Assembly (NCBI GenBank): GCA_964603735.1
Contig: CAZRWN010000003.1
Location: 22,745 to 86,744, forward strand
Source of the DNA: an uncultured Sediminispirochaeta sp.
GTDB lineage: Bacteria; Spirochaetota; Spirochaetia; DSM-16054; Sediminispirochaetaceae
Length of the DNA: 64,000 nt
Direction: 5' to 3'
The notes under the pieces are model-generated. The model did not search any database. It was not told the DNA's origin and was given only the letters and a program-made list of their open reading frames with translations. Position 1 is the first letter of the stretch, and every line of letters begins with the position of its first letter. The translations under genes were made by a program, and so were the position numbers. Below, piece by piece: positions 12,661 through 58,503 of the stretch.

Positions 12661-12720
12661 ATGTCTACGATACCACAAACCGAAGGTCGCGGCCACAGGA
12701 TAAATTTGTACCACAACCTC

Positions 12721-12771
12721 TTGACAAAAAGTACTATAGTACCTATTTTAGGTACTATAGTACATATAACA
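12721..12771 (+). promoter_or_regulatory. Promoter with two perfect 12-bp palindromic operators (GTACTATAGTAC x2) for the membrane-protein/MarR operon
   Basis: TTGACA lies at 12721-12726. The palindromes lie at 12731-12742 and 12752-12763, centre to centre 21 bp. A candidate -10 TATTTT at 12744-12749 has a 17-nt spacer. SD AAGGAG precedes ATG at 12789. Confidence 0.55.
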
Positions 12772-12788
12772 ATGCGAAGGAGATATTG

Positions 12789-18182: not shown

Positions 18183-18207
18183 AATAGCTCAATATAACGT
18201 GTAAGTT

Positions 18208-32584: not shown

Positions 32585-34192
32585 TTAATTTCCTTTGCGA
32601 ATAAAGGCGTCCCGGTATCCCCTCGAGGTAAAAGTAAACAGGAGAGTTCCGCTCTCGTCTTCATTGAGCGGACCGATCATCAGTTTATAAGGTGCGGCGA
32701 CATTGCCCTCTTCCTCAAAAAGAGTCACCGGATACTGATCCGCCAGCTCTTGGCCGCGGCTGCGGGCCAGATCGAGTTTGGAGTAGGCAGCCACCTGCAA
32801 GTAGTAACTGCCGGTGTCAATACTGCGCTGTACCGGAATCCTGCCGTCGGACGGCCGCCGGGTAGTCCGTTCTACGGTCGTCTCAGCCGGTTTCTCCGCT
32901 GGTTTTTCGGCCGGCTTCTCGTCAGGTGCCGGGCGGTCTTCGGGTACTGTTGCCGGTCCTTCAGGGGGTCGCTCCTCAGCCGGAATCAGAACCAGTTCAG
33001 CATCGTCCGGAATTTCCTCCTCGGTTGCCGGCTCGGAGGGCTCCTCGACAGGTTCCTCTGCGATTTTCTCCTCGGCTTCCTTTTCTACCGGCAGCACAGG
33101 CACATGGCTTAGTTTATCGGTTGCTTTTTTTTCAGCAGCCGGTTCCTCGGCTGCTGCGATATCTGCAGCGGGTTCCTCGGCTTTCGGCGGTTCGGGTGAA
33201 TGGCTGACCCTAATGTCGAGGTCTTCCTCACCATCTCCATCCGGATCGGCACTTGCCAAAGAGGGTGTGGGGCCTTCACGTTGATCATCTTGCTCGGGCA
33301 GCTGCGGCGCCGCGGGAGAGTAACGCCGGTCTTTCTGCTGCATGAACAGGGGTTCGAGTTGGGCCACCTCGGGTCCGCTCGGTTTGACGACTTCATCAGC
33401 CGCGACTGTAGCATCCGCCTTCTCCGCAGCAGGAACCTCATCTTCAGATGGGGCGGCTTCTGCTGTGCGTTCGGGCTCGAGGCTGGGCTCGGGCAGTTCA
33501 ACAGTAATCTCGGAACGTGGCTGACTCGTGTCCGGCAGAATATCCGCCTCGGGCGTCACGGCCTCGGTGTCTGGCTCGGTGTCGGCCTCGGTGTCTGGCT
33601 CGGTGTCGGGCTCTCGCGGCGGCTGCTCTTCCGGCGGAGATTTCTCAGCGACCGTAGCTTCGCCCTCCGGCTCAACCGGGGGTTCACTCGGAGCTTCTTC
33701 CGGTACCTCCCCGACTTCCTTCCGCTCCCGGTCAGCCAGGTACTGTTCAACTACCGACAGACCGTCTTCATCTACTGCCGCCGAAGGGTTCAGATCGGGG
33801 TCGGCGGTATAAGGTGCGTCCTGAGAGATCATCGGTTCGATCATATCCGTATCGTCTTGCAGCGGGCTGACCTTGGCGGTGAGAATTTCTTCTTCGGAAA
33901 TTCCGAGTTCCTGAGCAGCCTCACGCGAAACCTGCATGAAGATTCTGTCCGTATTTACTCGCTCTACAATTCGGACTTCTACAGTTGTTCCGTTGGAGGG
34001 ATGTGTAATCTCGACCTTGCTATCGAGGGGGAATGCGTTCGAGGCAGCATACATTCCACTATGGGGCAAAAGGCCGTACGGAGCGGTGGAAACCTTCCCT
34101 TCCCAATAAGAGTCCTGTGCCCAGACCATTCCGGAACAGATGGCGATGAATAGTAGTAGTGCCGCGGCACGTAGAATTCGTTTCTTCGTCAT
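32585..34192 (-). CDS. rlpA: RlpA-like double-psi beta-barrel protein with a long acidic Pro/Glu-rich linker and a C-terminal SPOR domain
   Basis: The N-terminus GLLPHSGMYAASNAFPLDSKVEITHPSNGTTVEVRIVERV is DPBB-type. The C-terminus YYLQVAAYSKLDLARSRGQELADQ..YKLMIGPLNEDES is SPOR-type. I chose ATG 34192 (MTKKRILRAAALLLF signal peptide). Confidence 0.75.
   Translation of the reverse strand: MTKKRILRAAALLLFIAICSGMVWAQDSYWEGKVSTAPYGLLPHSGMYAASNAFPLDSKVEITHPSNGTTVEVRIVERVNTDRIFMQVSREAAQELGISEEEILTAKVSPLQDDTDMIEPMISQDAPYTADPDLNPSAAVDEDGLSVVEQYLADRERKEVGEVPEEAPSEPPVEPEGEATVAEKSPPEEQPPREPDTEPDTEADTEPDTEAVTPEADILPDTSQPRSEITVELPEPSLEPERTAEAAPSEDEVPAAEKADATVAADEVVKPSGPEVAQLEPLFMQQKDRRYSPAAPQLPEQDDQREGPTPSLASADPDGDGEEDLDIRVSHSPEPPKAEEPAADIAAAEEPAAEKKATDKLSHVPVLPVEKEAEEKIAEEPVEEPSEPATEEEIPDDAELVLIPAEERPPEGPATVPEDRPAPDEKPAEKPAEKPAETTVERTTRRPSDGRIPVQRSIDTGSYYLQVAAYSKLDLARSRGQELADQYPVTLFEEEGNVAAPYKLMIGPLNEDESGTLLFTFTSRGYRDAFIRKGN
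33560..33607 (-). repeat. Perfect 24-bp tandem duplication inside the rlpA linker (encodes TEPDTEAD x2)
   Basis: GGCCTCGGTGTCTGGCTCGGTGTC occurs at 33560-33583 and again at 33584-33607. Confidence 0.85.
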
Positions 34193-34280
34193 ATTACACT
34201 CCCATATCTCATTCTCGGGGATTGTGTACGACATATTGAGAACTTTCTGCCGTTACAAACCGCCGAACAACTGCAGCAGA

Positions 34281-34790
34281 TTACATTTCCTGCAGGGCCT
34301 GAGAGCCCACTTGCCTTCCCATCCGCCGTATCAGCTCCTTATCTTCCAACTCTTCCCGGTCACCGGCTTCAGATAGCAGAACCACTCCGTCGGCCAGCTT
34401 TTTTTCTGAATTGAGTTCAAAGAAACTGTACAATGCTTTTTGCGGGAGGATTTCTTCCTCATCCTCGGTAAATTTTAACTGAACCTGCAGGATATAACCG
34501 GCTCCTCCTGATTTGGCTTCTCGAAACGACGGTGTGTCGCCAAAAGTCTCTTTTGCCGCATCCTCTGATTCCTGATCATCATATTCCAGGAATCCGCCGT
34601 TAAAAATAATGTGTCCGGCACTAAAAAATACTTCCATAATCCCGTCTTCGACGTATATTACGGAGTCCTGCTTGTTTCCGCTCCCCGTAGGCACTTCCGA
34701 GAACAGCATTACCGTGTCTGCAGGTAAAGCTGCCAGCGATAGACAGAAGAAAAGCATGAAGAATACCGATTGTGTTTTAAGCTTGTACAT
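34281..34790 (-). CDS. Hypothetical secreted protein
   Basis: 169 aa with a signal peptide (VFFMLFFCLSLAALPA). I recognise no motif. Confidence 0.5.
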   Translation of the reverse strand: MYKLKTQSVFFMLFFCLSLAALPADTVMLFSEVPTGSGNKQDSVIYVEDGIMEVFFSAGHIIFNGGFLEYDDQESEDAAKETFGDTPSFREAKSGGAGYILQVQLKFTEDEEEILPQKALYSFFELNSEKKLADGVVLLSEAGDREELEDKELIRRMGRQVGSQALQEM

Positions 34791-34989
34791 ATTTAATAAT
34801 ATCGGAAGAAAAGGCAGGTTTGTAAACCGCCGATACCGCTGTTATGCAAATGCGAATGGCTCTGACCGGATTGAACCGTCGAAGTGGTTGCAGTGCAGCA
34901 ATTTCCATGGTATTTTTCTATTCAGAATTGTGAAGAAAGAAGTGCAGCCGGCCGGCAATAGCAACATTGAATCAGCGGGTACTCACCGT

Positions 34990-35547
34990 ATGAAGTATTA
35001 TGTGATACAGGTTTTAACCAGGGAAGAACCAAAGTTCCTTACATTGGCCCGGAATGCACTCCGGGTGGATTGCCCTGAATGGGCTGACAGCGGCCGTTTT
35101 TTGTGGCCGCGCCGTAAGCTCACCATACGCAGGCGAGGAAAAACTAAAGAGGAGCTTGCACCGATATTCCCCGGATACTTGTTTTATGAAGCCACCGACC
35201 TTCCACCAGAAGTCTACTGGACACTGAAGCGGACTTCGGGGTTTATTCGCTTTCTGAAGAATAATCAGAGCATCGAACCCCTGACCGGCGATGATAAAGG
35301 ATTACTGCTCCATTTTTTGAGCTACGGCGAAGTGGTGGACAAATCGACGGTTACCTTTGACAAAAATAACCGTATTGAGGTGCTCGACGGCCCGATGAAA
35401 GGCCTTGAGGGGCGGATTGTGAAAGTGGACAAACGAAAAAAGCGGGCAAAAGTACGGTTATCGCTGTATGAACAGTCATTCTTAATCGATTTTGGATTCG
35501 AATTCTTAGAGAAGAAGAGCGAAGATGATCCGGGAAAAACAGAGTAA
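34990..35547 (+). CDS. Specialised NusG paralogue (LoaP/UpxY/RfaH-like antiterminator): NGN plus KOW domains
   Basis: MKYYVIQVLTREEPKFL..APIFPGYLFYEA is the NGN domain. VLDGPMKGLEGRIVKVDKRKKRAKVRLSL is the KOW domain. It is the first gene of a polysaccharide-type operon. The track ORF start at 34609 is an upstream extension. Confidence 0.75.
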   Translation: MKYYVIQVLTREEPKFLTLARNALRVDCPEWADSGRFLWPRRKLTIRRRGKTKEELAPIFPGYLFYEATDLPPEVYWTLKRTSGFIRFLKNNQSIEPLTGDDKGLLLHFLSYGEVVDKSTVTFDKNNRIEVLDGPMKGLEGRIVKVDKRKKRAKVRLSLYEQSFLIDFGFEFLEKKSEDDPGKTE

Positions 35548-37003
35548 TATTTACATCATTGGAGCCGGCTTTGCCGGCCACGAGATCGCCGAAGAGATAA
35601 AGTCAAAAGGCATCCTCGGGAATGTGGTTGCCTTTATAGACGACGATCCCGATAAAATCGGAAGTGAGATTAATGGCATTCCGGTGTACGGGCCCATCTC
35701 CGCACTACAGTCGGTGATGCAGCATACACCGGCTGATGAGGCACTTATTGCTATTCCGGCGGCAAGCAGCGAGCAGCTCAGGCGGATATATACCATTCTC
35801 CAGAACACAAAACTCACTCGTATCCGTATTCTGCCGAAGCTCTCACAAATTATAGACGGCGATGCTCACCTCATTCAAACTCGTGAAATCACGGCGCAGG
35901 ACCTGTTGGGCCGCAATCAGATTTCCATCTGTCTGAAAGAGAGCCTCGACTACCTTCGTGGACAGCGGGTCCTCATTACCGGGGCCGGAGGCAGTATCGG
36001 CAGTGAATTAGCACGTCAGCTGCTGTCGGGAGGTGCCGAACGCTTGTATCTGTTCGATCACGGCGAGAACAGCGTCTATGAAATAGAGAAGGAATTAAGG
36101 ATTTTGCAGGAAGAGGGGGTCGGTGAAAAAGCGACAATTGTTCCTATCATAGGAGAGATGCAGGATCCGAGTTACATGAACTTCATCATCCGGCGGCTGA
36201 AGGCGGATGTCATATTTCACTGTGCCGCTTACAAGCACGTACCGCTGCTCGAAGAAAATCCGATCGAAGCCATTAAGAACAATGTTTTCGGTACGAAAAA
36301 TGTGGTTGAAGCTGCCCGCGCGAACAATGTGCCCAGGTTTGTGCTGATATCCACCGACAAAGCTGTCAACCCGACCGGCGTGTACGGCGCTTCGAAGAGC
36401 CTGGCCGAGGAGATCGTTCTGGGCAGCAACGGCGGGCCCGGCGATTATATAGTCGTGCGCTTCGGGAATGTCCTCGGCTCCCGGGGCAGTATCGTCCCCC
36501 TGTTTACCAAGCAAATCCTGAAGGGCGGGCCGGTTACAATTACCCATCCCGAGGCTACCCGCTTTTTCATGACTATACCGGAGGCCTCCTCGCTGGTTCT
36601 AAAGGCCGGCGGAGTCGGGAAAGGCGGCAATGTCTATATTCTGGACATGGGAGAACCCCTGCTTATTCGCGATTTGGCCGAGCAGATGATCCGGTTCTAC
36701 GGCTTTTCTCCCGAAAGTGAGATACCTATCCGCTACATAGGCCTGCGGCCCGGAGAAAAAGTGCACGAACGCCTGTGGGCCGAAGGTGAAAAGCTGATAA
36801 GAACGGAACACAGCGGGATTAATAAACTCGACCGGATTCCGCGTTTCTCCGTGAGTCTGGACGAGGTTCTCGATGAGCTGCGTCCGATCTGTTTTTTCGA
36901 TTCGAACTCCCCCGAAAGCTACCGGAACAGAATTCTGTTGCGCGAAACACTGCAGAACTACCTGCCGACAATAAGAAAGGCTGAGAATGAGCCGCTCTAC
37001 TGA
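35525..37003 (+). CDS. CapD/PglF/WbpM-like nucleotide-sugar 4,6-dehydratase (soluble form)
   Basis: It has an N-terminal Rossmann-like module (IYIIGAGFAGHEI) and an SDR core (VLITGAGGSIGSEL, AAYKHVP, ISTDKAVNPTGVYGASK). Confidence 0.85.
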   Translation: MIREKQSNIYIIGAGFAGHEIAEEIKSKGILGNVVAFIDDDPDKIGSEINGIPVYGPISALQSVMQHTPADEALIAIPAASSEQLRRIYTILQNTKLTRIRILPKLSQIIDGDAHLIQTREITAQDLLGRNQISICLKESLDYLRGQRVLITGAGGSIGSELARQLLSGGAERLYLFDHGENSVYEIEKELRILQEEGVGEKATIVPIIGEMQDPSYMNFIIRRLKADVIFHCAAYKHVPLLEENPIEAIKNNVFGTKNVVEAARANNVPRFVLISTDKAVNPTGVYGASKSLAEEIVLGSNGGPGDYIVVRFGNVLGSRGSIVPLFTKQILKGGPVTITHPEATRFFMTIPEASSLVLKAGGVGKGGNVYILDMGEPLLIRDLAEQMIRFYGFSPESEIPIRYIGLRPGEKVHERLWAEGEKLIRTEHSGINKLDRIPRFSVSLDEVLDELRPICFFDSNSPESYRNRILLRETLQNYLPTIRKAENEPLY

Positions 37004-38228
37004 TTCAAAAAACCGTGCAAATTTTATACCCTTCGCCCGCCCTTCTATCGGCCGGGATGAGGAAAACGCGGTGTTGGAGGTGCTGCGCAGCGGCTGGCTG
37101 ACAACTGCCGGCCAGACGCAGGCATTTGAACGCGAGTTTGCCGAACTAACCGGAGCAGTCCATGCCCTGGCGGTCAATTCGGCTACCGCCGGCCTGCACC
37201 TCGCCCTCGAGGCGCTGGGGATAGGTCCGGGTGACAAAGTCATCACCACCCCCTACACCTTTACCGCCACCGCCGAGGTAATCCGCTATCTGCAGGCCGA
37301 CCCGCTGTTTGTCGACATCGATGAGCGGACTCTCACGATGGACCCTGAAAAAACAGAAGCAGCTCTCGCCGCCGCGGCAGCCAGGGACACTTCTGCGGCA
37401 TCAACCGGGGGCTCGGCGATAAAAGCCCTGCTGCCGGTGCACATGGGCGGGCATCCCTGCGATATGAAAGCCTTGTCGGAAATTGCCCGCGAATACTCAC
37501 TTTCGGTAGTTGAAGACGCGGCCCATGCCCTGCCCGTACGCTACGGCGACTCCTTCTTAGGCTGTATAGGCGATGTGGGAGTCTATTCTTTCTACGCCAC
37601 CAAAACCATTACCACCGGCGAAGGGGGAATGGTGACCACCGCCGATCCCGAGATAGCCGCCCGCATCGGTGTAATGCGCCTGCACGGTATCGACCGGGAG
37701 GTGTGGAAGCGCTATACCGACAGTAAAGCTTCGTGGAAGTATGATGTAGTGGCGGCCGGATTCAAATATAACCTGCCCGATATGGCCGCTGCGGTTGGCA
37801 GAGTACAACTGCGGCGGGCCTACGAGTTTCTGGAACGGCGCCGGATAATTGCCGAACGCTATCTGGAGGCCTTCCGGGATTTGGACTTTCTCGAGCTGCC
37901 TTCGGCGCCGGATCAACACGCATGGCACTTGTTCATCTTGAGAATTAAGCCGGAAAAGCTTACCATTAATCGAGATGGGTTCATCAACCGGCTTCAAGCG
38001 GCGGGCATCGGAACCTCCGTGCATTATATTCCGCTGCACATTATGAGCTATTATGCCCGCAGCTACGGTTTTGCGCCTGAAGATTACCCGGTATCAATGC
38101 GGGTATACAGAACGGCTTTCAGCATTCCGATCTATCCCGATCTGACCGACAACGAGGTCAAACGGATAATCGAGGCGGTGAGGTCGGTCGGAACCCGCCA
38201 TTACCGAAGGAGCTGCAGTGCCAGATAG
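36987..38228 (+). CDS. DegT/DnrJ/EryC1/StrS-family PLP-dependent sugar aminotransferase
   Basis: IPFARPSIGRDEENAVLEVLRSGWLTTAGQ is the family N-terminus. FYATKTITTGEGGMV holds the PLP lysine region. Confidence 0.9.
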   Translation: MSRSTDSKNRANFIPFARPSIGRDEENAVLEVLRSGWLTTAGQTQAFEREFAELTGAVHALAVNSATAGLHLALEALGIGPGDKVITTPYTFTATAEVIRYLQADPLFVDIDERTLTMDPEKTEAALAAAAARDTSAASTGGSAIKALLPVHMGGHPCDMKALSEIAREYSLSVVEDAAHALPVRYGDSFLGCIGDVGVYSFYATKTITTGEGGMVTTADPEIAARIGVMRLHGIDREVWKRYTDSKASWKYDVVAAGFKYNLPDMAAAVGRVQLRRAYEFLERRRIIAERYLEAFRDLDFLELPSAPDQHAWHLFILRIKPEKLTINRDGFINRLQAAGIGTSVHYIPLHIMSYYARSYGFAPEDYPVSMRVYRTAFSIPIYPDLTDNEVKRIIEAVRSVGTRHYRRSCSAR

Positions 38229-40284
38229 CTACCGCTTTATTGACGAATACAGCAGCCGCGATATGCTGCATATTAGAATCGTCCGCGCTGATATCCCGCG
38301 CGGCAGTATATCCTCCACCGAGTCGACCAATCTTCCCGATGAAGTGCTGGTGTTCGATTCCGACGATATCCAGGGCAGCAATCGGGTCAGCGTGCTGGAA
38401 GAGGAGATGCCGCTGCTCAGTGACGGGAGTATTGCTTACGAAGGCGAACCGATTCTACTGATAGCTGCGGAGGAACAGGATCTGCTCGATGAAGCTGAAC
38501 GGCACATCAGGATTTCATATGAGACTGATTTTTCACTGCTGGCCTTCGAACCGGCTTCCAAAGAGCAGATCGTCGACTCGGTAAGCATCTCGCGGGGCAA
38601 TCCTTCTAAAGAGTTCGAAGAAACCACACAAATTGTGGAAGCCGAATACCGTACCGCCATCGAAAGTCATGTGAGCCGGGCGCCTATCGGCGCCTACACC
38701 GAGTATAAAGACGGCCGGTATTGCGTATACACTCCCAGCCACTGGCCATTCCATGTCCGCAGAACAGTGGCGGATGTACTGGGGATAGCAGAAACAGAAA
38801 TCAAGGTAATTCAAACGAATCCCAGCCCAGCCTATGGAGAGAAAGTGGTCTATCCGTCGATTCTATCGGCAATGTCGGCACTCGTCTGTCAGGCCACCGG
38901 CAAAGCCGCTCGGCTGCTCTTGGCACCCAAGGAAGCGGAGCAGTTCACCACCCGCAAAGCACCGGTGCACGTTAAAAGCACTTCCATTCTGAATGAGGCC
39001 GGCAGCATTATTGCCCACGACGTTCATATGCGCTTCGATGTCGGAGCCTATCCGCTGTTCACGAAAGAGCTTCTACGCCGGGCGGTCATCACCTCCGGCA
39101 GCTACTACCAGGTGCCGAACGTTTCTATAACCGCCGAAGCTATCCGAACCTCCGCTCCTCCGATGAACATCTATCGCGGCTTAGGAGTATCGCAGAGCCT
39201 GTTTGCCACCGAGGTGCATTTTTCTCGACTGGCAGAGTTTTCACAGCTCAACCCCGGAGATTGGAAAAAGAGCCAAACCAAGGACAAGCACATTGTTACC
39301 GGAGTGCACATACCCAATATGCCTCTGGAGAAACTGGTAGATACGGTAATCGATCAGTCGGATTTCTACCGTAAACACTCAGCGTATGAACAGATCCGCA
39401 AACGCCGCAATTCCGTCAAAGCCTCACGCAGGTTTTTGCGCGGCATTGGTATTGCCACCGGATTCGCCGGAAACGGTTTCACCGACAAGCCGGTAAGCGG
39501 GGGCAACTGGGGCATAAAGGCTACCCTGGATAAAAAGGACCAGCTGACTATTGAATGCGGAACTATGACGATACCCGAGGCCATAAAAACTATCTGGAAG
39601 CGCCGGGCCGGCGAAACCTTGGGGATCTCACCGGATTCAGTGGAAATCGCTGCCGGAAACACCGATTCACTGCCCGATTCGGGGCCGATGATGCTGGGCA
39701 TGCCGGTGACTGTATATACCAGTCTGGTGGACCGCTGCTGTAACTACATCCGCAAACAGAGGTTCAACAAACCCCTGCCCATCGAGGTGCGCCGCAACAT
39801 TATCGCAGCCAGAAAATCGACCTGGGACGCCTCGAGCTGTACGGGACTGCCGTTCCACAACTTTTCATGGGGTGCTGTCGTGACCGAGGTGCAGCTCGAC
39901 CCATTGACTCTGGTGCCGGAGGTACGCGGGGTGTGGGCAGCTTTCGACTGCGGACTGGTGTACGACACCCAGTATGCAGTCTCAATTGCAGAGGGCGGAA
40001 TCTACGAAGCCCTGGCCTGGGCAACGGGTGAACAAAAAGTTACTCCGCGCTCCTATCAGGACTATGTGATCGAGGGACATGAAACTCCGAATTTGCGGCT
40101 GCCGCCGGTTTCGGTGGTCTTTGCAAACCGGGCCAAGGGACTTCCGGGAGGTATTAACGAAATTGCCGAATCACTGGTACCCGCCGCCTTTGTCACCGCT
40201 CTGAGCCAGGCAACAGGGGTCTACTTCGACCGCATCCCCCTCACCTCGGAGACTATTCAGAGTTATCTGGAGGAACCTTCATGA
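38218..40284 (+). CDS. Xanthine dehydrogenase / aldehyde oxidase-family large (molybdopterin-type) subunit, divergent
   Basis: 688 aa. It has an a/b-hammerhead-like N-terminus (MLHIRIVRADIPRGSI..YEGEPILLIAAE), plus YRGLGVSQSLFATE, FDCGLVYD..AEGG and PAAFVTALSQATG segments. SPAYGEK sits where I expect GGGFGGK. GTG 38218 follows SD AAGGAG. Confidence 0.72.
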   Translation: MPDSYRFIDEYSSRDMLHIRIVRADIPRGSISSTESTNLPDEVLVFDSDDIQGSNRVSVLEEEMPLLSDGSIAYEGEPILLIAAEEQDLLDEAERHIRISYETDFSLLAFEPASKEQIVDSVSISRGNPSKEFEETTQIVEAEYRTAIESHVSRAPIGAYTEYKDGRYCVYTPSHWPFHVRRTVADVLGIAETEIKVIQTNPSPAYGEKVVYPSILSAMSALVCQATGKAARLLLAPKEAEQFTTRKAPVHVKSTSILNEAGSIIAHDVHMRFDVGAYPLFTKELLRRAVITSGSYYQVPNVSITAEAIRTSAPPMNIYRGLGVSQSLFATEVHFSRLAEFSQLNPGDWKKSQTKDKHIVTGVHIPNMPLEKLVDTVIDQSDFYRKHSAYEQIRKRRNSVKASRRFLRGIGIATGFAGNGFTDKPVSGGNWGIKATLDKKDQLTIECGTMTIPEAIKTIWKRRAGETLGISPDSVEIAAGNTDSLPDSGPMMLGMPVTVYTSLVDRCCNYIRKQRFNKPLPIEVRRNIIAARKSTWDASSCTGLPFHNFSWGAVVTEVQLDPLTLVPEVRGVWAAFDCGLVYDTQYAVSIAEGGIYEALAWATGEQKVTPRSYQDYVIEGHETPNLRLPPVSVVFANRAKGLPGGINEIAESLVPAAFVTALSQATGVYFDRIPLTSETIQSYLEEPS

Positions 40285-40757
40285 GAATAAGATTCACATT
40301 GAACGGCAATGCTATCGAAACTGAAGCGCACACCTCCACCCGGTTGGTCGATCTCCTGCACCGGGATCTACAGTTGCAGAGTCTGCACCCGGCCTGTTAC
40401 AACGGACAGTGCGGCAACTGTGCGGTTCTGTTCAACGGCGAATTAGTCTATTCATGTCTGCTGCCGGCTTTTGCCGCACAGGGCAGTTCGATTTATACCT
40501 ATGAGGGAATAGTCAAAACCCTGGAATACAACGACATCATCTCGGGCTTTCATGACGAGCAGGCTTACCCCTGCACCTACTGCCTGCCGGCAAAAGTCGT
40601 TATTACCCAGTCCATCCTGGAAAGTACGGTTGCTCCGAACACCCAGGAGGTGTTGGAAGCCTTTTCCGGTACCTACTGCCCATGCACCAATTTTAACAAC
40701 CTGGCCCGGGGGGTTATCCGGGCCGGCGAGTACAGACGGAGACGGCTGCATGAATGA
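40281..40757 (+). CDS. (2Fe-2S)-binding small subunit of the XDH-family complex
   Basis: Both canonical cysteine sets are present: C-x4-C-x2-C-x11-C (CYNGQCGNCAV..SC) and C-x2-C-x31-C-x-C (CTYC..CPC). Confidence 0.85.
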   Translation: MRIRFTLNGNAIETEAHTSTRLVDLLHRDLQLQSLHPACYNGQCGNCAVLFNGELVYSCLLPAFAAQGSSIYTYEGIVKTLEYNDIISGFHDEQAYPCTYCLPAKVVITQSILESTVAPNTQEVLEAFSGTYCPCTNFNNLARGVIRAGEYRRRRLHE

Positions 40758-41619
40758 GAGCAAAATCTATCAACCAACCTCCGTCGGTGAACTCCTGCGC
40801 ACCTACCAGGAGTATCCGCAGGCTCTTTTAATTGCCGGCGGGTCCGCCCTGGCCCGCGAACAGAAAAGCGACGGCCCGCTTGATTTGCCGGAAATTGTGC
40901 TGCACATCAATCGTATTCCGGAGCTGCAGCGCATCAGCCGAACCGAACGTTATTTTGAAATCGGCGCATGTGTTCCGATCAGCCGCATTCTGAAGGTCGG
41001 TCAACATGTCCTGCCGAAAACCTTTACCCTTGCCCTCCACAACATTGCCCACCCGGCCGTCCGCAACATGGGTACGCTGGGAGGGAATCTCGGCCATCGC
41101 CCCCGCCGCTTAAACACCTTCGGTCCGCTAACCATTCTGGATGCGCGGGTAGAACTGCGCAAACTCGGAAACAGCCGCTGGGTACAGATACCCCGGTTGT
41201 TCAATAAATCCGGAGAACCGGCCCTGGAGAGCGGCGAGCTGATTAGCCGCATTCGTATTCCCTTTGTCGACTGGAATCTACAGTTCTATCAGCGCATCGG
41301 CGATCCTTTCACCAAGCCGAAATCATCCCTCACCTTCAGTGCGCTCAGCGATGTTAAAAAGGGCGAAGTCACCGATTTTCGGGCAGCCTTCACTTTCCTC
41401 GGCCGCTCGGTGCTGCGAGACCGCGAACTCGAAACCCTGATTACCGGTAAAAAGGTTCCGCTGAGTGAACGTATCCGCTCCGAAGCGCGCAGCCTGTTTC
41501 GCAGTTCTCTGATGGGTCTGCCCGGCGATGTGACCTTGTTTCAGAAACAGCGGGCCCTCAGACTGCTGCAGTGGTATTTAAGTGCACTCCACGAGCCCAC
41601 CTCGGAGCTATTTTACTAA
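40750..41619 (+). CDS. FAD-binding (CoxM/XdhB-like) medium subunit of the XDH-family complex
   Basis: LLIAGGSALAREQ and VRNMGTLGGNLG are FAD_binding_5-type motifs. ATG 40750 overlaps the previous gene by 8 nt. The track start at 40552 lies inside the Fe-S gene. Confidence 0.8.
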   Translation: MNESKIYQPTSVGELLRTYQEYPQALLIAGGSALAREQKSDGPLDLPEIVLHINRIPELQRISRTERYFEIGACVPISRILKVGQHVLPKTFTLALHNIAHPAVRNMGTLGGNLGHRPRRLNTFGPLTILDARVELRKLGNSRWVQIPRLFNKSGEPALESGELISRIRIPFVDWNLQFYQRIGDPFTKPKSSLTFSALSDVKKGEVTDFRAAFTFLGRSVLRDRELETLITGKKVPLSERIRSEARSLFRSSLMGLPGDVTLFQKQRALRLLQWYLSALHEPTSELFY

Positions 41620-41638
41620 GCAATATCTTTTGAATATC

Positions 41639-41667
41639 TTTACGGCTTCGTGTCCATCCGGTATATT
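41639..41667 (+). promoter_or_regulatory. Possible dnaE promoter
   Basis: TTTACG (41639-41644), 17-nt spacer, TATATT (41662-41667). SD AAGGAG lies before ATG 41687. Confidence 0.3.
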
Positions 41668-41686
41668 TTGACTAAGGAGTTCTTGC

Positions 41687-44600
41687 ATGTCTCAATTCGT
41701 CCATTTACATAATCACACCGACTACTCGCTGCTGGACGGAGCTGCCAATATAGAAAAGATGGTCAAAACCGCCGCCGACCTGGGGATGGATCAGCTGGCG
41801 ATAACCGACCACGGCAATATGTTCGGTGTGCTGAAGTTTTACAAAACCTGTAGATCTCACGATATAAAACCGATTATCGGCTGTGAGTTCTACGTGGCAC
41901 CGGAATCCCGCTTCGATAAGAAGGGCTCGGAGCAGAAGAACCGTTATTATCACCTGCTGGTCATTGCGCGCAATCAGCAGGGCTACAAAAACCTTATGCA
42001 GCTCTCCAGCCGGGCTTATACCGAAGGTTTCTACTACAAACCGCGGATAGACGACGAGCTGCTGGAGGAATTCTCCGACGGACTGATCGGCGCCAGCGCC
42101 TGTCTGGCCGGAGAAATCCCGCAGTTGATTATGGATAACAGATACGAAGCGGCGGTGGAAAAGGCGCGTTACTATGAACGTCTGTTCGGCCAGGGGAATT
42201 TCTACCTCGAGCTGCAGGACCACGGTATTCCCGAACAGAAAACGGTCAACCAGTCTCTCGTCAAAATGTCAAAAGAAACCGGAATGCCGCTGATTGCGAC
42301 GAACGATATCCACTACATCAAGCGGGAAGATGCCAACGCCCAGGATATCCTCATCTGCATCGGAACCAACAAAAAGAAGGATCAAAACGACCGCCTCAAG
42401 TTCGACTCGGACCAGTTCTATCTGAAGAGCCCGGCGGAGATGGAAAGCCTGTTCAAGCATGTGCCCGAAGCCCTGGAAAATACCGTCGAGCTGGCCGGTA
42501 AATGCGACCTCGAGATTCCCCTGCCCGGCCCGATCCTGCCGCACTACGAAATTCCCCCGGAGTTCGAATCGCTGGAGGATTACCTGCACCACTTGACCAT
42601 CGAGGGCTTGAAAGAGCGCTACGGGGCGGTAACGGAGGAGCTGCGGAAGCGGGCCGAGCACGAGCTCGGCATCATCAACTCCATGGGCTTTCCCGGCTAC
42701 TTTCTAATAGTGTGGGACTTCATCGACTTTGCTCGGAAGAACCATATTCCGGTTGGACCGGGCCGCGGATCCGGGGCCGGCTCGATTGTTGCCTATGCCC
42801 TCGGTATTACCAACATCGAGCCGTTGAAATATAACCTACTGTTCGAGCGTTTTCTTAACCCTGAACGTGTGTCAATGCCCGACTTCGATATCGATTTCTG
42901 CTTCGAACGGCGGGGAGAAGTGATCGATTACGTTACCGAAAAGTACGGCAAGGACAAAGTGGGCCAGATCATCACCTTTGGGACGCTGAAGGCGAAAGCG
43001 GTACTGCGGGATGTGGGGCGTGTGCTGGACATACCACTATCGGAGACCAACCGAATAGCCAAGCTGGTGCCCGGCGATCTCGGCATTACCATCGACAAGG
43101 CGATTGAAGCCGAGCCGCGCCTGAAAGAGATTGAGGAGCAGGGCGGTGCATACACCGAGCTTATTCAAACCGCCCGCACCCTTGAAGGACTCTCCCGGCA
43201 CGCATCTACCCACGCCGCCGGAGTGGTCATTGGCCGTGAGCCGCTGACCGAATACGTACCGCTCTACGTCGATCCGCGCACCGGAGCAATCTCGACCCAG
43301 TACACCATGGACCAGCTGGAGGAGTGCGGGCTGGTGAAGATGGATTTTCTCGGTCTGAAAACACTTACCCTGATCAAAAACACCGAAAAGCTGATCCGCG
43401 CCCGCGGCATCGATTTTGATATCGAAAAGATTCCGGAAGACGACAAACCCACTTTTGAACTGCTGGGCGAAGGCAAGAGCACCAGTATCTTCCAGTTCGA
43501 GAGTTCGGGCATGCAGAATATTCTGCGCCAGGCCAAACCGGAGACCATCGAGGACCTGATCGCTTTGAACGCCCTGTACCGGCCCGGCCCGATGCAGTAC
43601 ATTCCCCAGTTCATCGCCAGCAAGAACGGCCAGCAGGAGATCCAGTATCCCGACCCCAGCCTGGAAGAGGTTCTTAAACCGACCTACGGGGTTATCGTCT
43701 ACCAGGAACAGGTTATGCAGGTAGCCCAGATCATCGGCGGCTTCTCCCTGGGAAAAGCGGATATCCTGCGGCGGGCCATGAGTAAAAAGAAGATCAAAGA
43801 GATGGAGAAGATGAAGGTCGACTTCATCAACGGAGCGGTTGAGAAGGGACACGGCAAACAGCACGCCGAAGATATTTTCGAGATGCTGAAGCCCTTCTCC
43901 CAGTACGGCTTCAACAAGAGCCACGCCGCCGCCTATTCGGTGGTTGCGTATCAAACCGCATATCTGAAGGCCAACTATCCGGCCGAGTTCATGGCGGCCA
44001 ACCTCACCAATGAAATCAACAATCCCGACAAGCTGTCGATCTACATTACCGAGACGGCCAATATGGGCATTGAAATCCTGCCGCCGAACATCAATTTGTC
44101 GGAGCGCGACTTTTCGGTTAGCGACGGTAAAATCGTCTACGGGCTGGTTGGTGTAAAGAATGTGGGTAAGAGCGCGGTTGAAGAGATTCTGCGGGCCCGT
44201 GCGGCCGAAGGGAAATACGAGAATTTCATCGACTTCCTCGACAAGGTCGATCTGCGGGCAGTCAACCGAAAGGTGATCGAAACCCTGATTCAGTGCGGAG
44301 CCTTCGACTGCCTCGGCCAGTCCCGGGCCACCCTCATGGAAAACCTGGAGAGCGCACTTGAGTTCATTCAGAAGAAGAAAGAACGCGAGCAGTTCGGCCA
44401 AACCTCGCTGTTCGAGGGGGCTCAGCAGGAGGAGATGGAGCGCTTCGATTTCGAGCAGTACGACGAGTGGCCCACCCAGGAGCGGCTGCAGCAGGAAAAG
44501 GCTTTATTAGGATTCTATGTCTCGGGTCATCCGCTGGACACCTACCGTGAAACCTGGAAACGGGCGGTTAACATCGACCTCGGACGGCCGGACCACTTTG

Positions 44601-45091
44601 TTTCTAACGCCAAATATTCGATTCTCGGTATCGTGACCAGTGTTCGCTCAATTTTCACCAAAACGGGTCGTCCGATGGCCTTTCTGCAGATAGAGGACTA
44701 CAATGGAGCCATAGAACTGGTAGTTTTTTCCGACCAGTGGGAGCAGAATCGCGAGCAGATCGAGGTGGACAGCATTCTGGCCTGCAGCGGGCGGGTCGAC
44801 CTGAGCCGGGGTGATCCAAAATTTATAGTAGAGACCATTATCCAGCCGGAGGAGATGGAAGAGATAGAAACCCGGGAAATTCATATCCGGCTCGAACGTA
44901 ATACCATGTCGGAGGAGGAACTGTACAACCTGCGCTCATACCTCTTCGACCACAAGGGCACCTGCCCCCTCTACCTCCATTTGGACGAGACGGTTATCAA
45001 GGCCTCCAGTCAGATAACCCTCTCTTCTTCGAGAGATGTGCTGGAGGAGCTGCGGCGATATCCTACTATCGAGGATATCTGGACCGCATAG
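41687..45091 (+). CDS. dnaE: DNA polymerase III alpha subunit
   Basis: 1134 aa with a PHP domain (FVHLHNHTDYSLLDGA), a polymerase core (PDFDIDF) and a C-terminal OB fold. Confidence 0.95.
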   Translation: MSQFVHLHNHTDYSLLDGAANIEKMVKTAADLGMDQLAITDHGNMFGVLKFYKTCRSHDIKPIIGCEFYVAPESRFDKKGSEQKNRYYHLLVIARNQQGYKNLMQLSSRAYTEGFYYKPRIDDELLEEFSDGLIGASACLAGEIPQLIMDNRYEAAVEKARYYERLFGQGNFYLELQDHGIPEQKTVNQSLVKMSKETGMPLIATNDIHYIKREDANAQDILICIGTNKKKDQNDRLKFDSDQFYLKSPAEMESLFKHVPEALENTVELAGKCDLEIPLPGPILPHYEIPPEFESLEDYLHHLTIEGLKERYGAVTEELRKRAEHELGIINSMGFPGYFLIVWDFIDFARKNHIPVGPGRGSGAGSIVAYALGITNIEPLKYNLLFERFLNPERVSMPDFDIDFCFERRGEVIDYVTEKYGKDKVGQIITFGTLKAKAVLRDVGRVLDIPLSETNRIAKLVPGDLGITIDKAIEAEPRLKEIEEQGGAYTELIQTARTLEGLSRHASTHAAGVVIGREPLTEYVPLYVDPRTGAISTQYTMDQLEECGLVKMDFLGLKTLTLIKNTEKLIRARGIDFDIEKIPEDDKPTFELLGEGKSTSIFQFESSGMQNILRQAKPETIEDLIALNALYRPGPMQYIPQFIASKNGQQEIQYPDPSLEEVLKPTYGVIVYQEQVMQVAQIIGGFSLGKADILRRAMSKKKIKEMEKMKVDFINGAVEKGHGKQHAEDIFEMLKPFSQYGFNKSHAAAYSVVAYQTAYLKANYPAEFMAANLTNEINNPDKLSIYITETANMGIEILPPNINLSERDFSVSDGKIVYGLVGVKNVGKSAVEEILRARAAEGKYENFIDFLDKVDLRAVNRKVIETLIQCGAFDCLGQSRATLMENLESALEFIQKKKEREQFGQTSLFEGAQQEEMERFDFEQYDEWPTQERLQQEKALLGFYVSGHPLDTYRETWKRAVNIDLGRPDHFVSNAKYSILGIVTSVRSIFTKTGRPMAFLQIEDYNGAIELVVFSDQWEQNREQIEVDSILACSGRVDLSRGDPKFIVETIIQPEEMEEIETREIHIRLERNTMSEEELYNLRSYLFDHKGTCPLYLHLDETVIKASSQITLSSSRDVLEELRRYPTIEDIWTA

Positions 45092-45125
45092 ATAAACCCG
45101 GAAAGGGAGAGAAGGAAGGACAGAA

Positions 45126-45713
45126 ATGACAGTTGTTGCAAGAATATTAGGCGGAATTCTAAGCCTCTACATGATTCTGATTTTCGTGCGGGTACTGCTC
45201 ACCTGGTTCAGCGGGGTGTACTACGGCCGGCCCTATGAAATTATACGTTCACTCACCGATCCCTACCTCAATTACTTCCGCCGCTTCCGCTTTCTGCAAA
45301 TGGGAAACGTGGACTTTTCGCCGATCGCCGGCATCCTGGTTCTGGTAGTAGTCCTGAACATCCTCAACCGCCTGGCCGTGTACGGAACCATTTCCGTCGG
45401 ACTGGTTCTGGCGATCATTCTCAACAGCCTCTGGTCCGCGGTTTCATTCCTGATTACTCTGTTTATCGTGCTAATCGTCATTCGCTTCGTCGCCGGTCTG
45501 ATCAATGCAAATACGGTGAATCCGTTTATCCGTACCGTCGATATGATCATCACCCCCCTGCTGAACTGGGTTCACAACACCTTTTTCAAACGCCGCTTTT
45601 TGACCCTGCAGAGCGGACTGGCAATAAGCGGAGCCTTACTGCTGGTAGTTTCAATTGCCGGCAACTTCCTCGTCTATCACCTGGCGCGCCTGTTTCAGTC
45701 GCTGCCCTTCTAA
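45126..45713 (+). CDS. YggT-family membrane protein
   Basis: 195 aa with two YGGT-like hydrophobic repeats (LSLYMILIFVRVLLTWF and LIVIRFVAGLI). SD GGGAGAGAAGGAAGG lies upstream. Confidence 0.7.
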   Translation: MTVVARILGGILSLYMILIFVRVLLTWFSGVYYGRPYEIIRSLTDPYLNYFRRFRFLQMGNVDFSPIAGILVLVVVLNILNRLAVYGTISVGLVLAIILNSLWSAVSFLITLFIVLIVIRFVAGLINANTVNPFIRTVDMIITPLLNWVHNTFFKRRFLTLQSGLAISGALLLVVSIAGNFLVYHLARLFQSLPF

Positions 45714-45733
45714 GCACTGCCGGCTGAGCGGAT

Positions 45734-47800
45734 ATGCTGTTAGGCGAGCTGAAGCATTCGGTAACAAAACTCAAAGGAGTCGGTCCCCGTACCGCCGCGC
45801 AGATGGCGGGTATGGGGGTGGTTTCGGTCGCCGATCTGCTGCTGCATGTTCCGCGGGATTATGAAGACCGCTCGAAAATCGTTCCCCTGGAAGCCGGCTA
45901 TCAGGGAGCAACGGTCAACACGATAGTCGAGGTTCTGGCACACGATTTTTTCGGTTCGGGCTACAAAAAAACCTTAAAGATATTTGTAAAGGATGAAACC
46001 GCCGGCGGAGTACTGGTCTGTTTCAACCGGAATTTTCTGCAGCAGGTGTTGAAGGTGGGACAGCAGTTTTACCTCTACGGACAGTTCGCCTACCGCTACG
46101 GTGAACTGCAGTCCACCAGCTTCGAAGCCGAACCCTACCCCTCGGACAACTCTAAATTCGGTTCGATTCTGCCGGTGTATCCGCTCTCGGGCAAACTCAA
46201 TCAGGCGGTGATGCGCAAGGCAGTGCAAGACGCCTTGAATACCTACGGCCGACACATCGACACCGAGCTGCCCGAAAGCCTCCGCAGCCACTACCGTTAT
46301 CCTGAAAAACTGAATGCCCTTACACAGCTGCACTTTCCCGATAGCCACGAAGCGGCCGCGACGGCCCGGCAGGCGCTGGCCTACGAAGAGCTGCTCTACT
46401 TTCAGTTGGTGGTTGCTCGGCGGGCGACGGCCCGCAGCCGCAGCAGCCGCAGCCCGCAGATTCTGCCGCAAGGTCTGCAGCAGCGCTGCCTGCGGCAGCT
46501 TCCCTTTAAGCTCACTGGTGATCAGCGCAGCGTTTTGAAGGAGATCAAGCAGGACCTCGACAGCTCGAAACCGATGGGACGTCTCCTGCAGGGTGACGTG
46601 GGTGCAGGTAAAACCCTGGTGGCCTTTCTGTCGGCTCTGCCGGTTATCGAAGCCGGCTATCAGGCCGCCTTTCTGGCACCGACCGAGCTGCTGGCCCGCC
46701 AGCATGCCGAAAAAGCGGCTGCGCTGCTGGAGCCGCTGGGAGTAAGAGTGGCCTTTTTGAGCGGTAATGTCGACAAAAACGCCCGCCGGCCGCTCCTGGA
46801 GGCGCTGAAATCCGGAGAGATCGATCTTTTGATCGGTACTCATGCGCTGTTTACCAAAGAGGTGGTCTTCGCCAATCTGCGCTTCATAATAATCGACGAA
46901 CAGCACAAATTCGGCGTTGAACAGCGGGCTCAGCTGGTTGAGAAGGGATCAGCCCCCGACCTGCTGCTGATGACCGCAACTCCCATACCCCGCACCCTTA
47001 CCCTCACCTTTTTCGGCGATCTGGAAGTCTCGTCTATCCACACTATGCCGCCGGGCCGCAGCCCTATCATCACCCATCTAGCCCGGCAGTCCAACGCTGA
47101 CAAGGTGTACAGCGCCGTACGTCACGAACTGCAGCGGGGACATCAGGCCTATTTCGTGTATCCTCTCATCAGCGGCAGCGACAGGAGTTCGCTGAAAGAT
47201 GCCGAAGGGGCTGCTGAGCAGCTGAGCTCGCAGATATTTCCCGAGTTCGAGGTGGCACTCATCCACTCCAAGATACGTGAGGACGAAAAACTGGCTCGAA
47301 TGCACGCCTTTTCCGAAGGCAAACTCGACATCCTGGTGTCGACCAGCGTAGTGGAAGTGGGAATCGATGTAAAAAACGCTACCTGCATGGTCATCGAACA
47401 CGCCGAGCGCTTCGGTCTGGCCGGGCTGCATCAGTTGCGCGGAAGGGTGGGCCGCAGCACATTACAATCATACGCCTTTCTGGTATACTCCGAAGAGCTA
47501 ACCGAAGAGGGCAAGCAGCGCCTCATGGTAATGAAACAGAGCAGTGACGGTTTTTTCATAGCCGAAGAGGACCTGAAAATTCGCGGTCCCGGTGAAGTAA
47601 CCGGCACCCGTCAGTCCGGTTTTATGCGTTTGAAATTCGCCGATTTGGGCGGCGATCTCGAACTGCTGGACAAAGCCCGCAAGGATGCATTCCGCATCAT
47701 CAAAGCCGACCCCGGCCTGCTGCAGCCGCCTCACGGTCACCTGCGTAAGGTCTTGGAGTGTTGCCCGCCCTTTCCGGAAGACGCTTTAAGCGGAGGCTGA
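45734..47800 (+). CDS. recG: ATP-dependent DNA helicase RecG
   Basis: 688 aa with a wedge domain, LQGDVGAGKT, DEQHKFGV and TATPIPRTL motifs. Confidence 0.95.
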   Translation: MLLGELKHSVTKLKGVGPRTAAQMAGMGVVSVADLLLHVPRDYEDRSKIVPLEAGYQGATVNTIVEVLAHDFFGSGYKKTLKIFVKDETAGGVLVCFNRNFLQQVLKVGQQFYLYGQFAYRYGELQSTSFEAEPYPSDNSKFGSILPVYPLSGKLNQAVMRKAVQDALNTYGRHIDTELPESLRSHYRYPEKLNALTQLHFPDSHEAAATARQALAYEELLYFQLVVARRATARSRSSRSPQILPQGLQQRCLRQLPFKLTGDQRSVLKEIKQDLDSSKPMGRLLQGDVGAGKTLVAFLSALPVIEAGYQAAFLAPTELLARQHAEKAAALLEPLGVRVAFLSGNVDKNARRPLLEALKSGEIDLLIGTHALFTKEVVFANLRFIIIDEQHKFGVEQRAQLVEKGSAPDLLLMTATPIPRTLTLTFFGDLEVSSIHTMPPGRSPIITHLARQSNADKVYSAVRHELQRGHQAYFVYPLISGSDRSSLKDAEGAAEQLSSQIFPEFEVALIHSKIREDEKLARMHAFSEGKLDILVSTSVVEVGIDVKNATCMVIEHAERFGLAGLHQLRGRVGRSTLQSYAFLVYSEELTEEGKQRLMVMKQSSDGFFIAEEDLKIRGPGEVTGTRQSGFMRLKFADLGGDLELLDKARKDAFRIIKADPGLLQPPHGHLRKVLECCPPFPEDALSGG

Positions 47801-58425: not shown

Positions 58426-58498
58426 GCCGCTGTAGCTCAGTCGGTAGAGCAGGGGACTGAAAATCCCCGTGTCAACAGTTCGATTCTGTTCGGCGGCA
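58426..58498 (+). tRNA. tRNA-Phe (anticodon GAA)
   Basis: It folds by hand as acceptor GCCGCTG/CGGCGGC, D arm GCTC-AGTCGGTA-GAGC, anticodon arm GGGGA-CTGAAAA-TCCCC, variable loop GTGTC, T arm AACAG-TTCGATT-CTGTT and discriminator A. It is near-identical in layout to E. coli tRNA-Phe. The 3' CCA is not encoded (ACA follows). Confidence 0.92.
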
Positions 58499-58503
58499 CA
58501 GAT

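Follow-up and report, generated by a model that had tools for sequence, protein, structure and literature searches.

A conserved LoaP-led spirochete operon joins amino-sugar genes to a xanthine dehydrogenase-like trio with an apparently degenerate molybdenum site

This report concerns six overlapping genes at 34990-41619 on the forward strand of a 64,000-nucleotide (nt) stretch of DNA from an uncultured Sediminispirochaeta species (GenBank contig CAZRWN010000003.1, positions 22,745 to 86,744; hereafter the window, meaning the whole stretch that was analyzed). The genes encode, in order, a LoaP-type NusG paralog, a PglF-like nucleotide-sugar dehydratase, a DegT aminotransferase, and three proteins of the xanthine dehydrogenase (XDH) family: a large subunit (L), a small iron-sulfur (Fe-S) subunit (S), and a medium subunit (M) that binds flavin adenine dinucleotide (FAD). 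This order is found in about 70 spirochete genomes, and the clade to which the window L subunit belongs keeps the fold of its family and appears to have lost the signatures of the molybdenum cofactor. Our composite reading, to which we assign a probability of roughly 0.55, is that the block is a six-gene operon whose trio is a molybdenum-free flavin/Fe-S module serving a redox step on an amino-sugar branch. The parts of this reading differ in strength. We are highly confident of the conserved operon and its degenerate molybdenum site; more tentatively, and at somewhat short of an even chance, we propose that the trio has a part in the sugar pathway.

Conservation of the six-gene block

The relatives come from a scan with one genome per species, which returned at least 171, mostly metagenome-assembled genomes (MAGs). 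We kept 80 loci, cited here by their L numbers, and mapped the window proteins onto them by tblastn. The order LoaP-CapD-DegT-L-S-M stands in nearly all of the kept loci that have enough flank. The closest relative of the window is a Sediminispirochaeta MAG whose L subunit is 96% identical, and the identical order recurs in annotated contigs where L identity is 66, 53, 39, 36, and 34%. The block is present in the cultured Treponema primitia ZAS-2, Leadbettera azotonutricia ZAS-9, and Marispirochaeta associata JC231, and in a 3.65-Mb Treponema-like genome (L090). Where other genes have taken over both flanks (L003, L004/L030, and L088-L091), it stays intact: L003 has a TetR/efflux cluster upstream, L004 has an 8-kb insertion ahead of dnaE, and the treponemes have secA upstream and either queA-ruvB or further glycan genes downstream. 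The operon is conserved across families, in free-living and in termite-gut spirochetes, and it persists despite changed surroundings. An earlier note on this DNA, made by a model from the letters alone, had proposed a search for the same gene order in other genomes, and that order proves to be widespread among spirochetes. The opposite pattern, a trio found only away from sugar genes with overlaps peculiar to this strain, is not what the relatives show: the trio sits behind the sugar genes nearly everywhere, and overlapping junctions are widespread.

A few loci depart from the rule or come from elsewhere. The cultured Brucepastera parasyntrophica (L091) carries a partly degraded block. At 7054-11851 of its locus, the dehydratase position (7054-8561) has no called gene and the L subunit is short (616 amino acids [aa]), which hints at decay of the block or at faults in the assembly of this isolate. 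Just one of the 80 loci, L087, bears a non-spirochete label (Candidatus Fermentibacteria). Because its contig is very short (2.6 kb) and holds only L and S, the label probably reflects misbinning and not lateral transfer. Outside the clade, the nearest XDH homologs share 27-29% identity and have purine-catabolism neighborhoods that include XdhC, amidohydrolases, uricase, and nucleoside transporters.

In the window, loaP opens the operon at 34990-35547 (185 aa; NusG and KOW domains, antiterm_LoaP model). It is followed by a PglF/CapD-like nucleotide-sugar 4,6-dehydratase dependent on nicotinamide adenine dinucleotide (NAD) at 35525-37003 (492 aa; Polysacc_synt_2) and by a DegT-family nucleotide-sugar 4-aminotransferase dependent on pyridoxal phosphate (PLP) at 36987-38228 (413 aa; DegT_DnrJ_EryC1). 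The L paralog (688 aa, GTG start; Ald_Xan_dh_C, MoCoBD_1, and MoCoBD_2), the S subunit (158 aa; Fer2 and Fer2_2), and the M subunit (289 aa; FAD_binding_5) occupy 38218-40284, 40281-40757, and 40750-41619. All six lie on the plus strand, and their five successive junctions overlap by 23, 17, 11, 4 (ATGA), and 8 nt. The reading frames, coordinates, and overlap lengths agree exactly with those given in the earlier note, and Pfam and NCBIfam return the same domain assignments for all six proteins. The two less obvious starts, 34990 for loaP and 40750 for the FAD subunit, are backed by the conserved N-termini of homologs. The former is further supported because the conserved promoter described below falls inside the longer alternative reading frame. 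Every internal start has a purine-rich, Shine-Dalgarno-like run on its 5′ side within the preceding gene, such as GAAGGAG ahead of L and GGAGGA ahead of S. The ratio of nonsynonymous to synonymous substitution (dN/dS) is 0.03-0.15 across the block, and all six genes are under purifying selection.

The tight packing extends to the relatives. With start codons picked by alignment to the window proteins, which biases overlap lengths toward those of the window, the junctions overlap in 97% of 67 loci for CapD/DegT, 94% of 83 for L/S, 88% of 75 for S/M, and 79% of 63 for LoaP/CapD. The DegT/L junction overlaps in 64% of 72 loci, and the two genes are ≤20 nt apart in 90%. In a few loci DegT and L seem to be 35-70 nt apart, most likely through start codons misassigned by our script and not through a real spacer that bears a promoter. 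By comparison, M and dnaE overlap in no locus and are separated by a median gap of 68 nt. The earlier statement that the overlaps leave no room for internal promoters was too strong, since promoters may sit within coding sequence.

The distribution of promoter-like elements is nevertheless uneven. A predicted sigma-70-type promoter lies at 34888-34916 (+), ∼70 nt 5′ of loaP, with a −35 element TTGCAG (34888-34893), a 17-nt spacer, and an extended −10 element TGgTATTTT (hexamer 34911-34916). It aligns across the relatives and is conserved: in 39 of 63 loci the 150 nt ahead of loaP contain the pattern TTGNNN-N13-15-TGNTANNNT, and shuffles give an expectation of 0.36. No CapD, DegT, S, M, or dnaE gene is preceded by this pattern, and of 82 L genes just one is. 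Where L leads the block, in L073, a loaP-like extended −10 promoter stands directly in front of it. At the other end, a predicted dnaE promoter (TTTACG-17-TATATT) at 41639-41667 (+) marks the downstream limit of the unit, and CTTTAC(A/G)...TATATT recurs in the M-dnaE spacer of many relatives. A conserved loaP promoter, the near absence of its pattern inside the block, and a distinct conserved dnaE promoter-like element together point to one six-gene unit. A terminator-like hairpin follows the FAD gene in L011. No terminator was found in the 67-nt M-dnaE spacer of the window, and transcription may read through into dnaE there. Consensus scans for promoters and terminators over 34200-46000 gave counts no higher than in shuffles, and an Rfam scan of the whole window found no leader RNA, its sole match being a tRNA-Phe.

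The earlier note's view that a dedicated NusG paralog leads the operon is borne out, and the paralog can be named more precisely. Its N-terminal part matches PF02357 (NusG, residues 1-99, E = 2.6e-8) and is followed by PF00467 (KOW, residues 126-155, E = 5e-5). The NCBIfam model NF033641 (antiterm_LoaP) gives 139.6 bits, above its cutoff of 125, whereas the nusG (56.8 bits against 135.7), UpxY (40.7 bits), and RfaH (28.5 bits) models all fall far below theirs. The nearest solved chain is 8f5g_A (69 bits), and Escherichia coli NusG scores about 36 bits. The dN/dS of loaP is 0.03-0.06. Its product is a predicted processive antiterminator of the LoaP type. The loaP leader in the window is ∼70 nt long and holds the palindrome GCCGGCCGGC; in many relatives the leader is just 5-30 nt. 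The gene may be leaderless in many relatives, in which the predicted −10 element ends 5-12 nt before the loaP ATG.

The large subunit and the electron-transfer subunits

By fold, the L subunit is a full member of the XDH family. It matches PF01315 (Ald_Xan_dh_C), PF02738 (MoCoBD_1), and PF20256 (MoCoBD_2). Its AlphaFold2 model (mean predicted local distance difference test score 87.4, predicted TM-score 0.89) aligns by Foldseek with TM-scores of 0.80-0.85 to Desulfovibrio gigas aldehyde oxidoreductase (1sij), bovine xanthine oxidase (1fiq_C), and Rhodobacter capsulatus XDH (1jro_B). A dN/dS of 0.04-0.05 indicates strong purifying selection, as in the neighboring genes. The protein nonetheless scores five- to tenfold below every NCBIfam equivalog cutoff, for example, 140 against 784 bits for pucD.

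What sets this clade apart is its molybdenum site. We aligned 81 clade members with 14 canonical relatives, including those from purine contexts. Of the positions that never vary in the canonical set, 35 are no longer kept by the clade. The signatures GGxFGGKE, FRGFGxPQ, E-M-GQG, the A-S of the SGPTVASR/AAS segment, and GQIEGG are present in all 14 canonical proteins and replaced in the clade. For bovine numbering and cofactor contacts (G796-E802, R912/F914, G1039/Q1040, A1079, Q1194, and E1261), we rely on what is established for bovine XDH rather than on a superposition. In these terms, GGxFGGKE at 796-802 becomes PSPAYGEKV in the window; FRGFGxPQ, with R912 and F914, becomes YRGLGVSQ, the Arg being kept in just 17 of 81 members; E-M-GQG, with G1039 and Q1040, becomes MTIPEAI; SGPTVASR, with A1079, becomes GPMMLGM; and GQIEGG, with Q1194, becomes SIAEGG. 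Most of the 35 lost positions sit in bovine segments that contact the cofactor or the substrate. The catalytic Glu (E1261) is present in 14 of 14 canonical relatives, whereas the clade has E in 47 members, D in 14, Q in 8, P in 4, A in 2, G in 2, and other residues in the remainder. The same substitutions are seen against the solved nicotinate dehydrogenase 3hrd_A and mouse AOX3 (3zyv_A). The clade also has invariant residues of its own (W176, E284, SDFxRKxxxYE, R515/F516, W573, and Q664), which point to a newly gained functional site and away from decay. In nine annotated contexts the trio has neither an XdhC nor a MocA-type gene beside it; the purine-context relative L006 has both.

In contrast, the electron-transfer parts of the trio are preserved. 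Cys39, 44, 47, 59, 98, 101, 133, and 135 of the S subunit are each kept in 80-82 of 83 homologs and, as judged from this alignment, both of its [2Fe-2S] cluster sites are intact. The nearest solved chains are 4zoh_C and 3hrd_D, the latter from nicotinate dehydrogenase. The M subunit matches PF00941 (FAD_binding_5, E = 2.5e-35), and its AGGS and TLGGN FAD motifs align to 4zoh_B and 3hrd_C, with the TLGGN glycines conserved across the clade. The C-terminal part of M is too divergent to match CO_deh_flav_C; the same holds in the operon-linked relatives, whereas the purine-context relatives L006 and L007 do match. We also considered an extra Fe-S cluster like that of 4-hydroxybenzoyl-CoA reductase and rejected it: M has a single Cys, and there is one Cys among the clade-specific conserved positions of L.

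These comparisons bear directly on the identity of the trio, which the earlier note had assigned to the molybdenum-hydroxylase family. The fold and the set of subunits bear this out; the cofactor signatures are lost, and the catalytic Glu is not conserved. With those gone, the trio should not be filed as a molybdenum hydroxylase despite its fold, Fe-S sites, and FAD motifs, and molybdenum-dependent sugar oxidation becomes unlikely. The trio is probably a repurposed flavo-iron-sulfur module. It could instead be a genuine molybdenum (or tungsten) hydroxylase with a divergent pocket, which oxidizes an aldehyde or heterocycle related to the sugar pathway, as the earlier note had it. The XDH fold is complete and all three subunits are present. 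At the catalytic and R912 positions the window L subunit itself still has Glu and Arg, and it retains the Lys of the GGKE motif and the (D)SGP segment. In T. primitia and L. azotonutricia, molybdenum cofactor is presumably made for use by other enzymes. We nevertheless consider this improbable, given the clustering of the 35 lost positions in cofactor-contacting segments, the replacement of the catalytic Glu by D, Q, P, A, or G in ∼40% of the clade, and the absence of a nearby XdhC-type maturation gene in the annotated contexts. XDH-like proteins reported in Treponema pallidum, an organism not known to synthesize the molybdenum cofactor, point the same way.

The loss of catalytic and cofactor motifs under strong purifying selection would also fit a different role, in which L is a catalytically dead scaffold and the complex is structural or regulatory, for example, stabilizing the sugar enzymes and performing no redox chemistry of its own. 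There is precedent in NuoG/Nqo3, a vestigial molybdopterin fold without a cofactor. However, >95% of homologs retain the FAD motifs and all eight [2Fe-2S] cysteines, which argues that electron transfer is still in use, and the clade-specific invariant residues of L suggest that a functional site has been gained. A pseudoenzyme of this kind is therefore, in our view, doubtful.

Sugar enzymes, genomic context, and the role of the trio

The two enzymes ahead of the trio belong to well-described families. The dehydratase (PF02719, Polysacc_synt_2, E = 1.3e-108) is a soluble protein with an N-terminal Rossmann-like CoA_binding_3 domain. Its closest solved relatives are Campylobacter jejuni PglF/WlaL (5bju and 5bjy, 245-249 bits), followed by CapD (6bwc, 167 bits) and PseB (2gn4, 145 bits), and it aligns with PglF 5bjy over residues 120-430. 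The NAD-binding glycines of TGAGGSIGS and the motifs ISTDKAV and YGASK are conserved in 67 homologs; the Tyr of YGASK stands where wild-type PglF has Met. The protein scores below every NCBIfam equivalog cutoff (PseB 179 against 408 bits, FnlA 148 against 730, LegB 51 against 475). Likewise, the aminotransferase (PF01041, DegT_DnrJ_EryC1, E = 4.8e-119) stays below its cutoffs (PseC 366 against 423.5 bits, ArnB 351 against 631, LegC 256 against 420), so equivalog-level identity as PseC, ArnB, LegC, or WecE is not reached. Its nearest solved chains are those of ArnB (8sng and 1mdo, 288-296 bits), with Helicobacter pylori PseC (2fn6) at 121 bits.

Another role for the DegT protein was considered. 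E1/ColD-type dehydrases carry His in place of the Schiff-base lysine, and a 3-dehydrase of this type could have been fed by the Fe-S and FAD subunits. We rejected this candidate: the PLP lysine, K206 in SFYATK, is invariant in 75 of 75 DegT homologs, which argues for a transaminase, and the RfbH model scores 151 bits against a cutoff of 423. A CapD/PglF-type dehydratase followed by a DegT aminotransferase, with no acetyltransferase next, is thus just what the earlier note had described.

From what is known of these families, LoaP would ride with RNA polymerase and keep transcription processive through the unit, and the enzyme pair should convert a uridine diphosphate (UDP)-linked N-acetylhexosamine (UDP-HexNAc) to UDP-4-amino-4,6-dideoxy-HexNAc. 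The trio would not perform molybdenum hydroxylation. It would act as a flavin/Fe-S electron-transfer module in which the repurposed L subunit binds the substrate, a different ligand, or a partner. So constituted, it may carry out or support a redox tailoring step, either along the amino-sugar branch or on a glycan derived from that branch.

Several points weigh against this composite reading. The loss of the cofactor from L is inferred from sequence, and the window protein keeps the residues named above. The functional coupling of the trio to the sugar enzymes is proposed from conserved adjacency, and gene order by itself is weak evidence of coupling here because the unrelated dnaE, yggT, recG, and rsmD are likewise syntenic in the lineage. 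In two loci the trio stands apart from the sugar genes: in L072, a Treponemataceae MAG (9357-13339), loaP overlaps L by 4 nt with no CapD or DegT, and in L073, a Spirochaetota MAG (9986-13321), L-S-M directly follows ligA with no adjacent CapD or DegT. Finally, no LoaP recruitment hairpin or terminator was found in the loaP leaders, to which the search for a recruitment element was confined.

Some of these points are what one would expect if the trio were a housekeeping flavo-iron-sulfur oxidoreductase, for example, one linked to pyridine nucleotides or ferredoxin, that has nothing to do with sugars and shares the promoter for historical reasons. At L072 and L073 the trio does without CapD and DegT, keeping loaP in the one and a loaP-like promoter in the other. 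Local gene order is generally stable, ligA being as syntenic as the core genes already named, and the trio has diverged more quickly than CapD or DnaE (at 62-67% identity for CapD, that of L is down to 33-39%). Against this stand the contiguity of the six genes where both flanks were replaced, the close DegT/L spacing in 90% of loci, and the fact that the link is broken in just 2 of ∼70 informative loci. We regard a trio unrelated to sugars as unlikely, though it has a real share of the probability.

Within the reading we prefer, a more specific and decidedly speculative version can be framed. In most bacterial members of the family, the ancestral pocket holds a pterin-pyrophosphate-cytidine dinucleotide cofactor. 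This pocket might have been converted into a site for a nucleoside-diphospho-sugar, giving a new class of molybdenum-free FAD/Fe-S enzyme that performs one-electron redox chemistry on a UDP-sugar; we think the odds are long. The sugar ring would then take the former place of the pterin and molybdenum, within electron-transfer range of the proximal [2Fe-2S] cluster, an arrangement for which the odds are just as long. The substrate, on the same slender chance, would be a UDP-4-keto or UDP-4-amino-6-deoxy sugar, acted on directly. If this version were true and the XDH-like proteins of T. pallidum were orthologous, the trio would represent a core, unexplored step of spirochete glycan biosynthesis.

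The case of T. pallidum deserves attention for this reason. TP0077 (cap5D) and TP0078 (spsC) may precede its XDH-like genes, and the organism is not known to synthesize the molybdenum cofactor. If confirmed, the gene order and the absent pathway would be strong independent support for cofactor independence. XDH-like hypothetical proteins have indeed been reported in the reduced genome of this syphilis agent: in strain SS14, TPASS_0079 and TPASS_0081 are listed as XDH molybdenum-binding-like and FAD-binding-like (PMC4403809 and its correction). A literature search on TP0077-TP0080, cap5D/spsC, and the molybdenum cofactor in Treponema found only this annotation. Further homolog searches aimed at T. 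pallidum and Treponema denticola orthologs reached T. primitia, L. azotonutricia, Hollandina, and Brucepastera and not the pathogens.

The genes around the operon offer further observations. The window is ordinary core chromosome, with ligA upstream and dnaE, yggT, recG, rsmD, and his genes downstream. Divergent from loaP, the minus strand encodes two proteins without a Pfam match: one of 169 aa that looks secreted (34281-34790) and one of 549 aa (32585-34234). A pair of this kind (∼165-175 aa with a signal-peptide-like N-terminus, and ∼410-550 aa) adjoins loaP in L001, L002, L004, and L088-L091, so that Sediminispirochaeta-like genomes, Marispirochaeta, and Treponema all have it; in four of these seven relatives the longer partner matches SPOR weakly or faintly. 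The operon and this pair could form one functional unit, possibly at the cell envelope.

Glycan genes recur nearby. In T. primitia (L088, 13608-22091) and L. azotonutricia (L089, 13563-22100), the six-gene block is followed by additional glycan genes, among them a dehydroquinate synthase-like gene, a conserved 511- to 543-aa protein without a recognized domain, and UDP-glucose dehydrogenase. T. primitia adds phosphoenolpyruvate mutase and phosphonopyruvate decarboxylase (phosphonate) genes, and L. azotonutricia adds an ATP-binding cassette exporter and Wzi. In these two species, the six-gene unit heads a larger surface-polysaccharide locus. In L090, a gene of the NeuB family (nonulosonic acid synthases) at 17963-19114 lies 4.6 kb downstream of the trio, with queA, ruvABC, and yebC between them on the other strand. 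In the window, a TylF-family (macrocin-type) O-methyltransferase at 29736-30503 (−) overlaps the end of ligA by 4 nt and has syntenic counterparts in L001, L002, and L004; a methyltransferase of sugar type is an odd neighbor for a DNA ligase. The flagellin glycan of T. denticola bears a methoxy group, and flagellin O-glycosylation is required there for filament assembly and motility (PMC13439194). The links of the operon to nonulosonic-acid or flagellin glycans, by way of nearby NeuB and glycan genes, are circumstantial, and the part in tailoring flagellin or surface glycans that the earlier note suggested is a conjecture. Among the window reading frames scanned, the only flagellar and RNA genes are a 401-aa FliG homolog at 57086-58291 (−), whose first FliG domain match begins at residue 78, and the adjoining single tRNA-Phe(GAA) at 58426-58499 (+).

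Every gene of the operon falls in a known superfamily. The chance of a new enzyme class is modest, and the chemistry of the trio is probably new. To our knowledge, no xanthine oxidase family member has been described that lacks the cofactor and retains the flavin and the Fe-S wire, and the searchable literature, of which coverage was partial, holds no description of the L clade or of its coupling to nucleotide-sugar genes. The database labels "xanthine dehydrogenase" and "molybdopterin-dependent oxidoreductase" are probably wrong for the whole spirochete-wide clade, for which one genome scan detected at least 171 relatives and which also takes in several hundred protein clusters. A family member without molybdenum would show the reuse of an ancient redox scaffold. 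Overall, the operon linkage of the trio to LoaP and to amino-dideoxy-sugar enzymes provides a testable entry into spirochete glycan biology.

Comparison with known systems

It is instructive to set each part of the operon beside its best-known counterpart. The LoaP of Bacillus velezensis, an antiterminator of the dfn and mln polyketide operons, shares the NGN and KOW domains and the association with biosynthetic operons. Its determinants are a UNCG-type hairpin bound by LoaP and one or more intrinsic terminators in the leader (PMC12691694). Here, by contrast, the leader is short, variable, or absent, the cargo consists of sugar and redox genes rather than polyketide synthases, and loaP is the first cistron of the operon that it presumably serves. 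In this respect, the operon extends LoaP biology to a factor encoded as the first, often leaderless, cistron of its own presumed target.

The sugar enzymes resemble the C. jejuni PglF-PglE(-PglD) route to UDP-diNAc-bacillosamine and the PseB-PseC(-PseH) route to pseudaminic acid, in which a 4,6-dehydratase is likewise adjacent to a DegT 4-aminotransferase with its PLP lysine. Unlike in those routes, no N-acetyltransferase follows in the window operon. The window dehydratase lacks the membrane anchor of PglF, and the aminotransferase is nearer to ArnB than to the solved PseC.

The trio has the same subunit types as the three-subunit bacterial molybdenum hydroxylases, among them Eubacterium barkeri nicotinate dehydrogenase (3HRD), the Sulfolobus tokodaii enzyme (4ZOH), quinoline 2-oxidoreductase (1T3Q), 4-hydroxybenzoyl-CoA reductase (1RM6), and CO dehydrogenase. 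The two groups share the overall fold (TM-scores of 0.80-0.85), the eight-Cys small subunit, the FAD_binding_5 medium subunit, and ATGA-coupled genes. They differ in that the window clade lacks GGxFGGKE, FRGFGxPQ, E-M-GQG, GQIEGG, and a conserved catalytic Glu in L, has an unrecognizable C-terminal domain in M and no XdhC/MocA gene nearby, and is encoded behind nucleotide-sugar genes rather than in a purine or aromatic catabolic context.

Two further systems illuminate what such a module might do. In complex I of the respiratory chain, the NuoG/Nqo3 subunit has kept a molybdoenzyme fold that holds no cofactor, next to Fe-S clusters that still work. Its superfamily is another one, that of dimethyl sulfoxide reductase and formate dehydrogenase, and it has no homology to the window L subunit, so the analogy is conceptual. 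In 3,6-dideoxyhexose biosynthesis, the DegT-fold enzyme E1 needs an FAD/[2Fe-2S] partner, E3, that is encoded next to it (AscC/AscD and DdhC/DdhD). The PLP lysine, which the window DegT protein keeps, is a His in E1, and E1 has a [2Fe-2S] cluster of its own. E3 is a single protein of the ferredoxin-NADP-reductase type rather than an XDH-type trimer. With these differences, E1 and E3 still provide a precedent for a nucleotide-sugar enzyme of the DegT fold served by a dedicated FAD/[2Fe-2S] electron-transfer partner.

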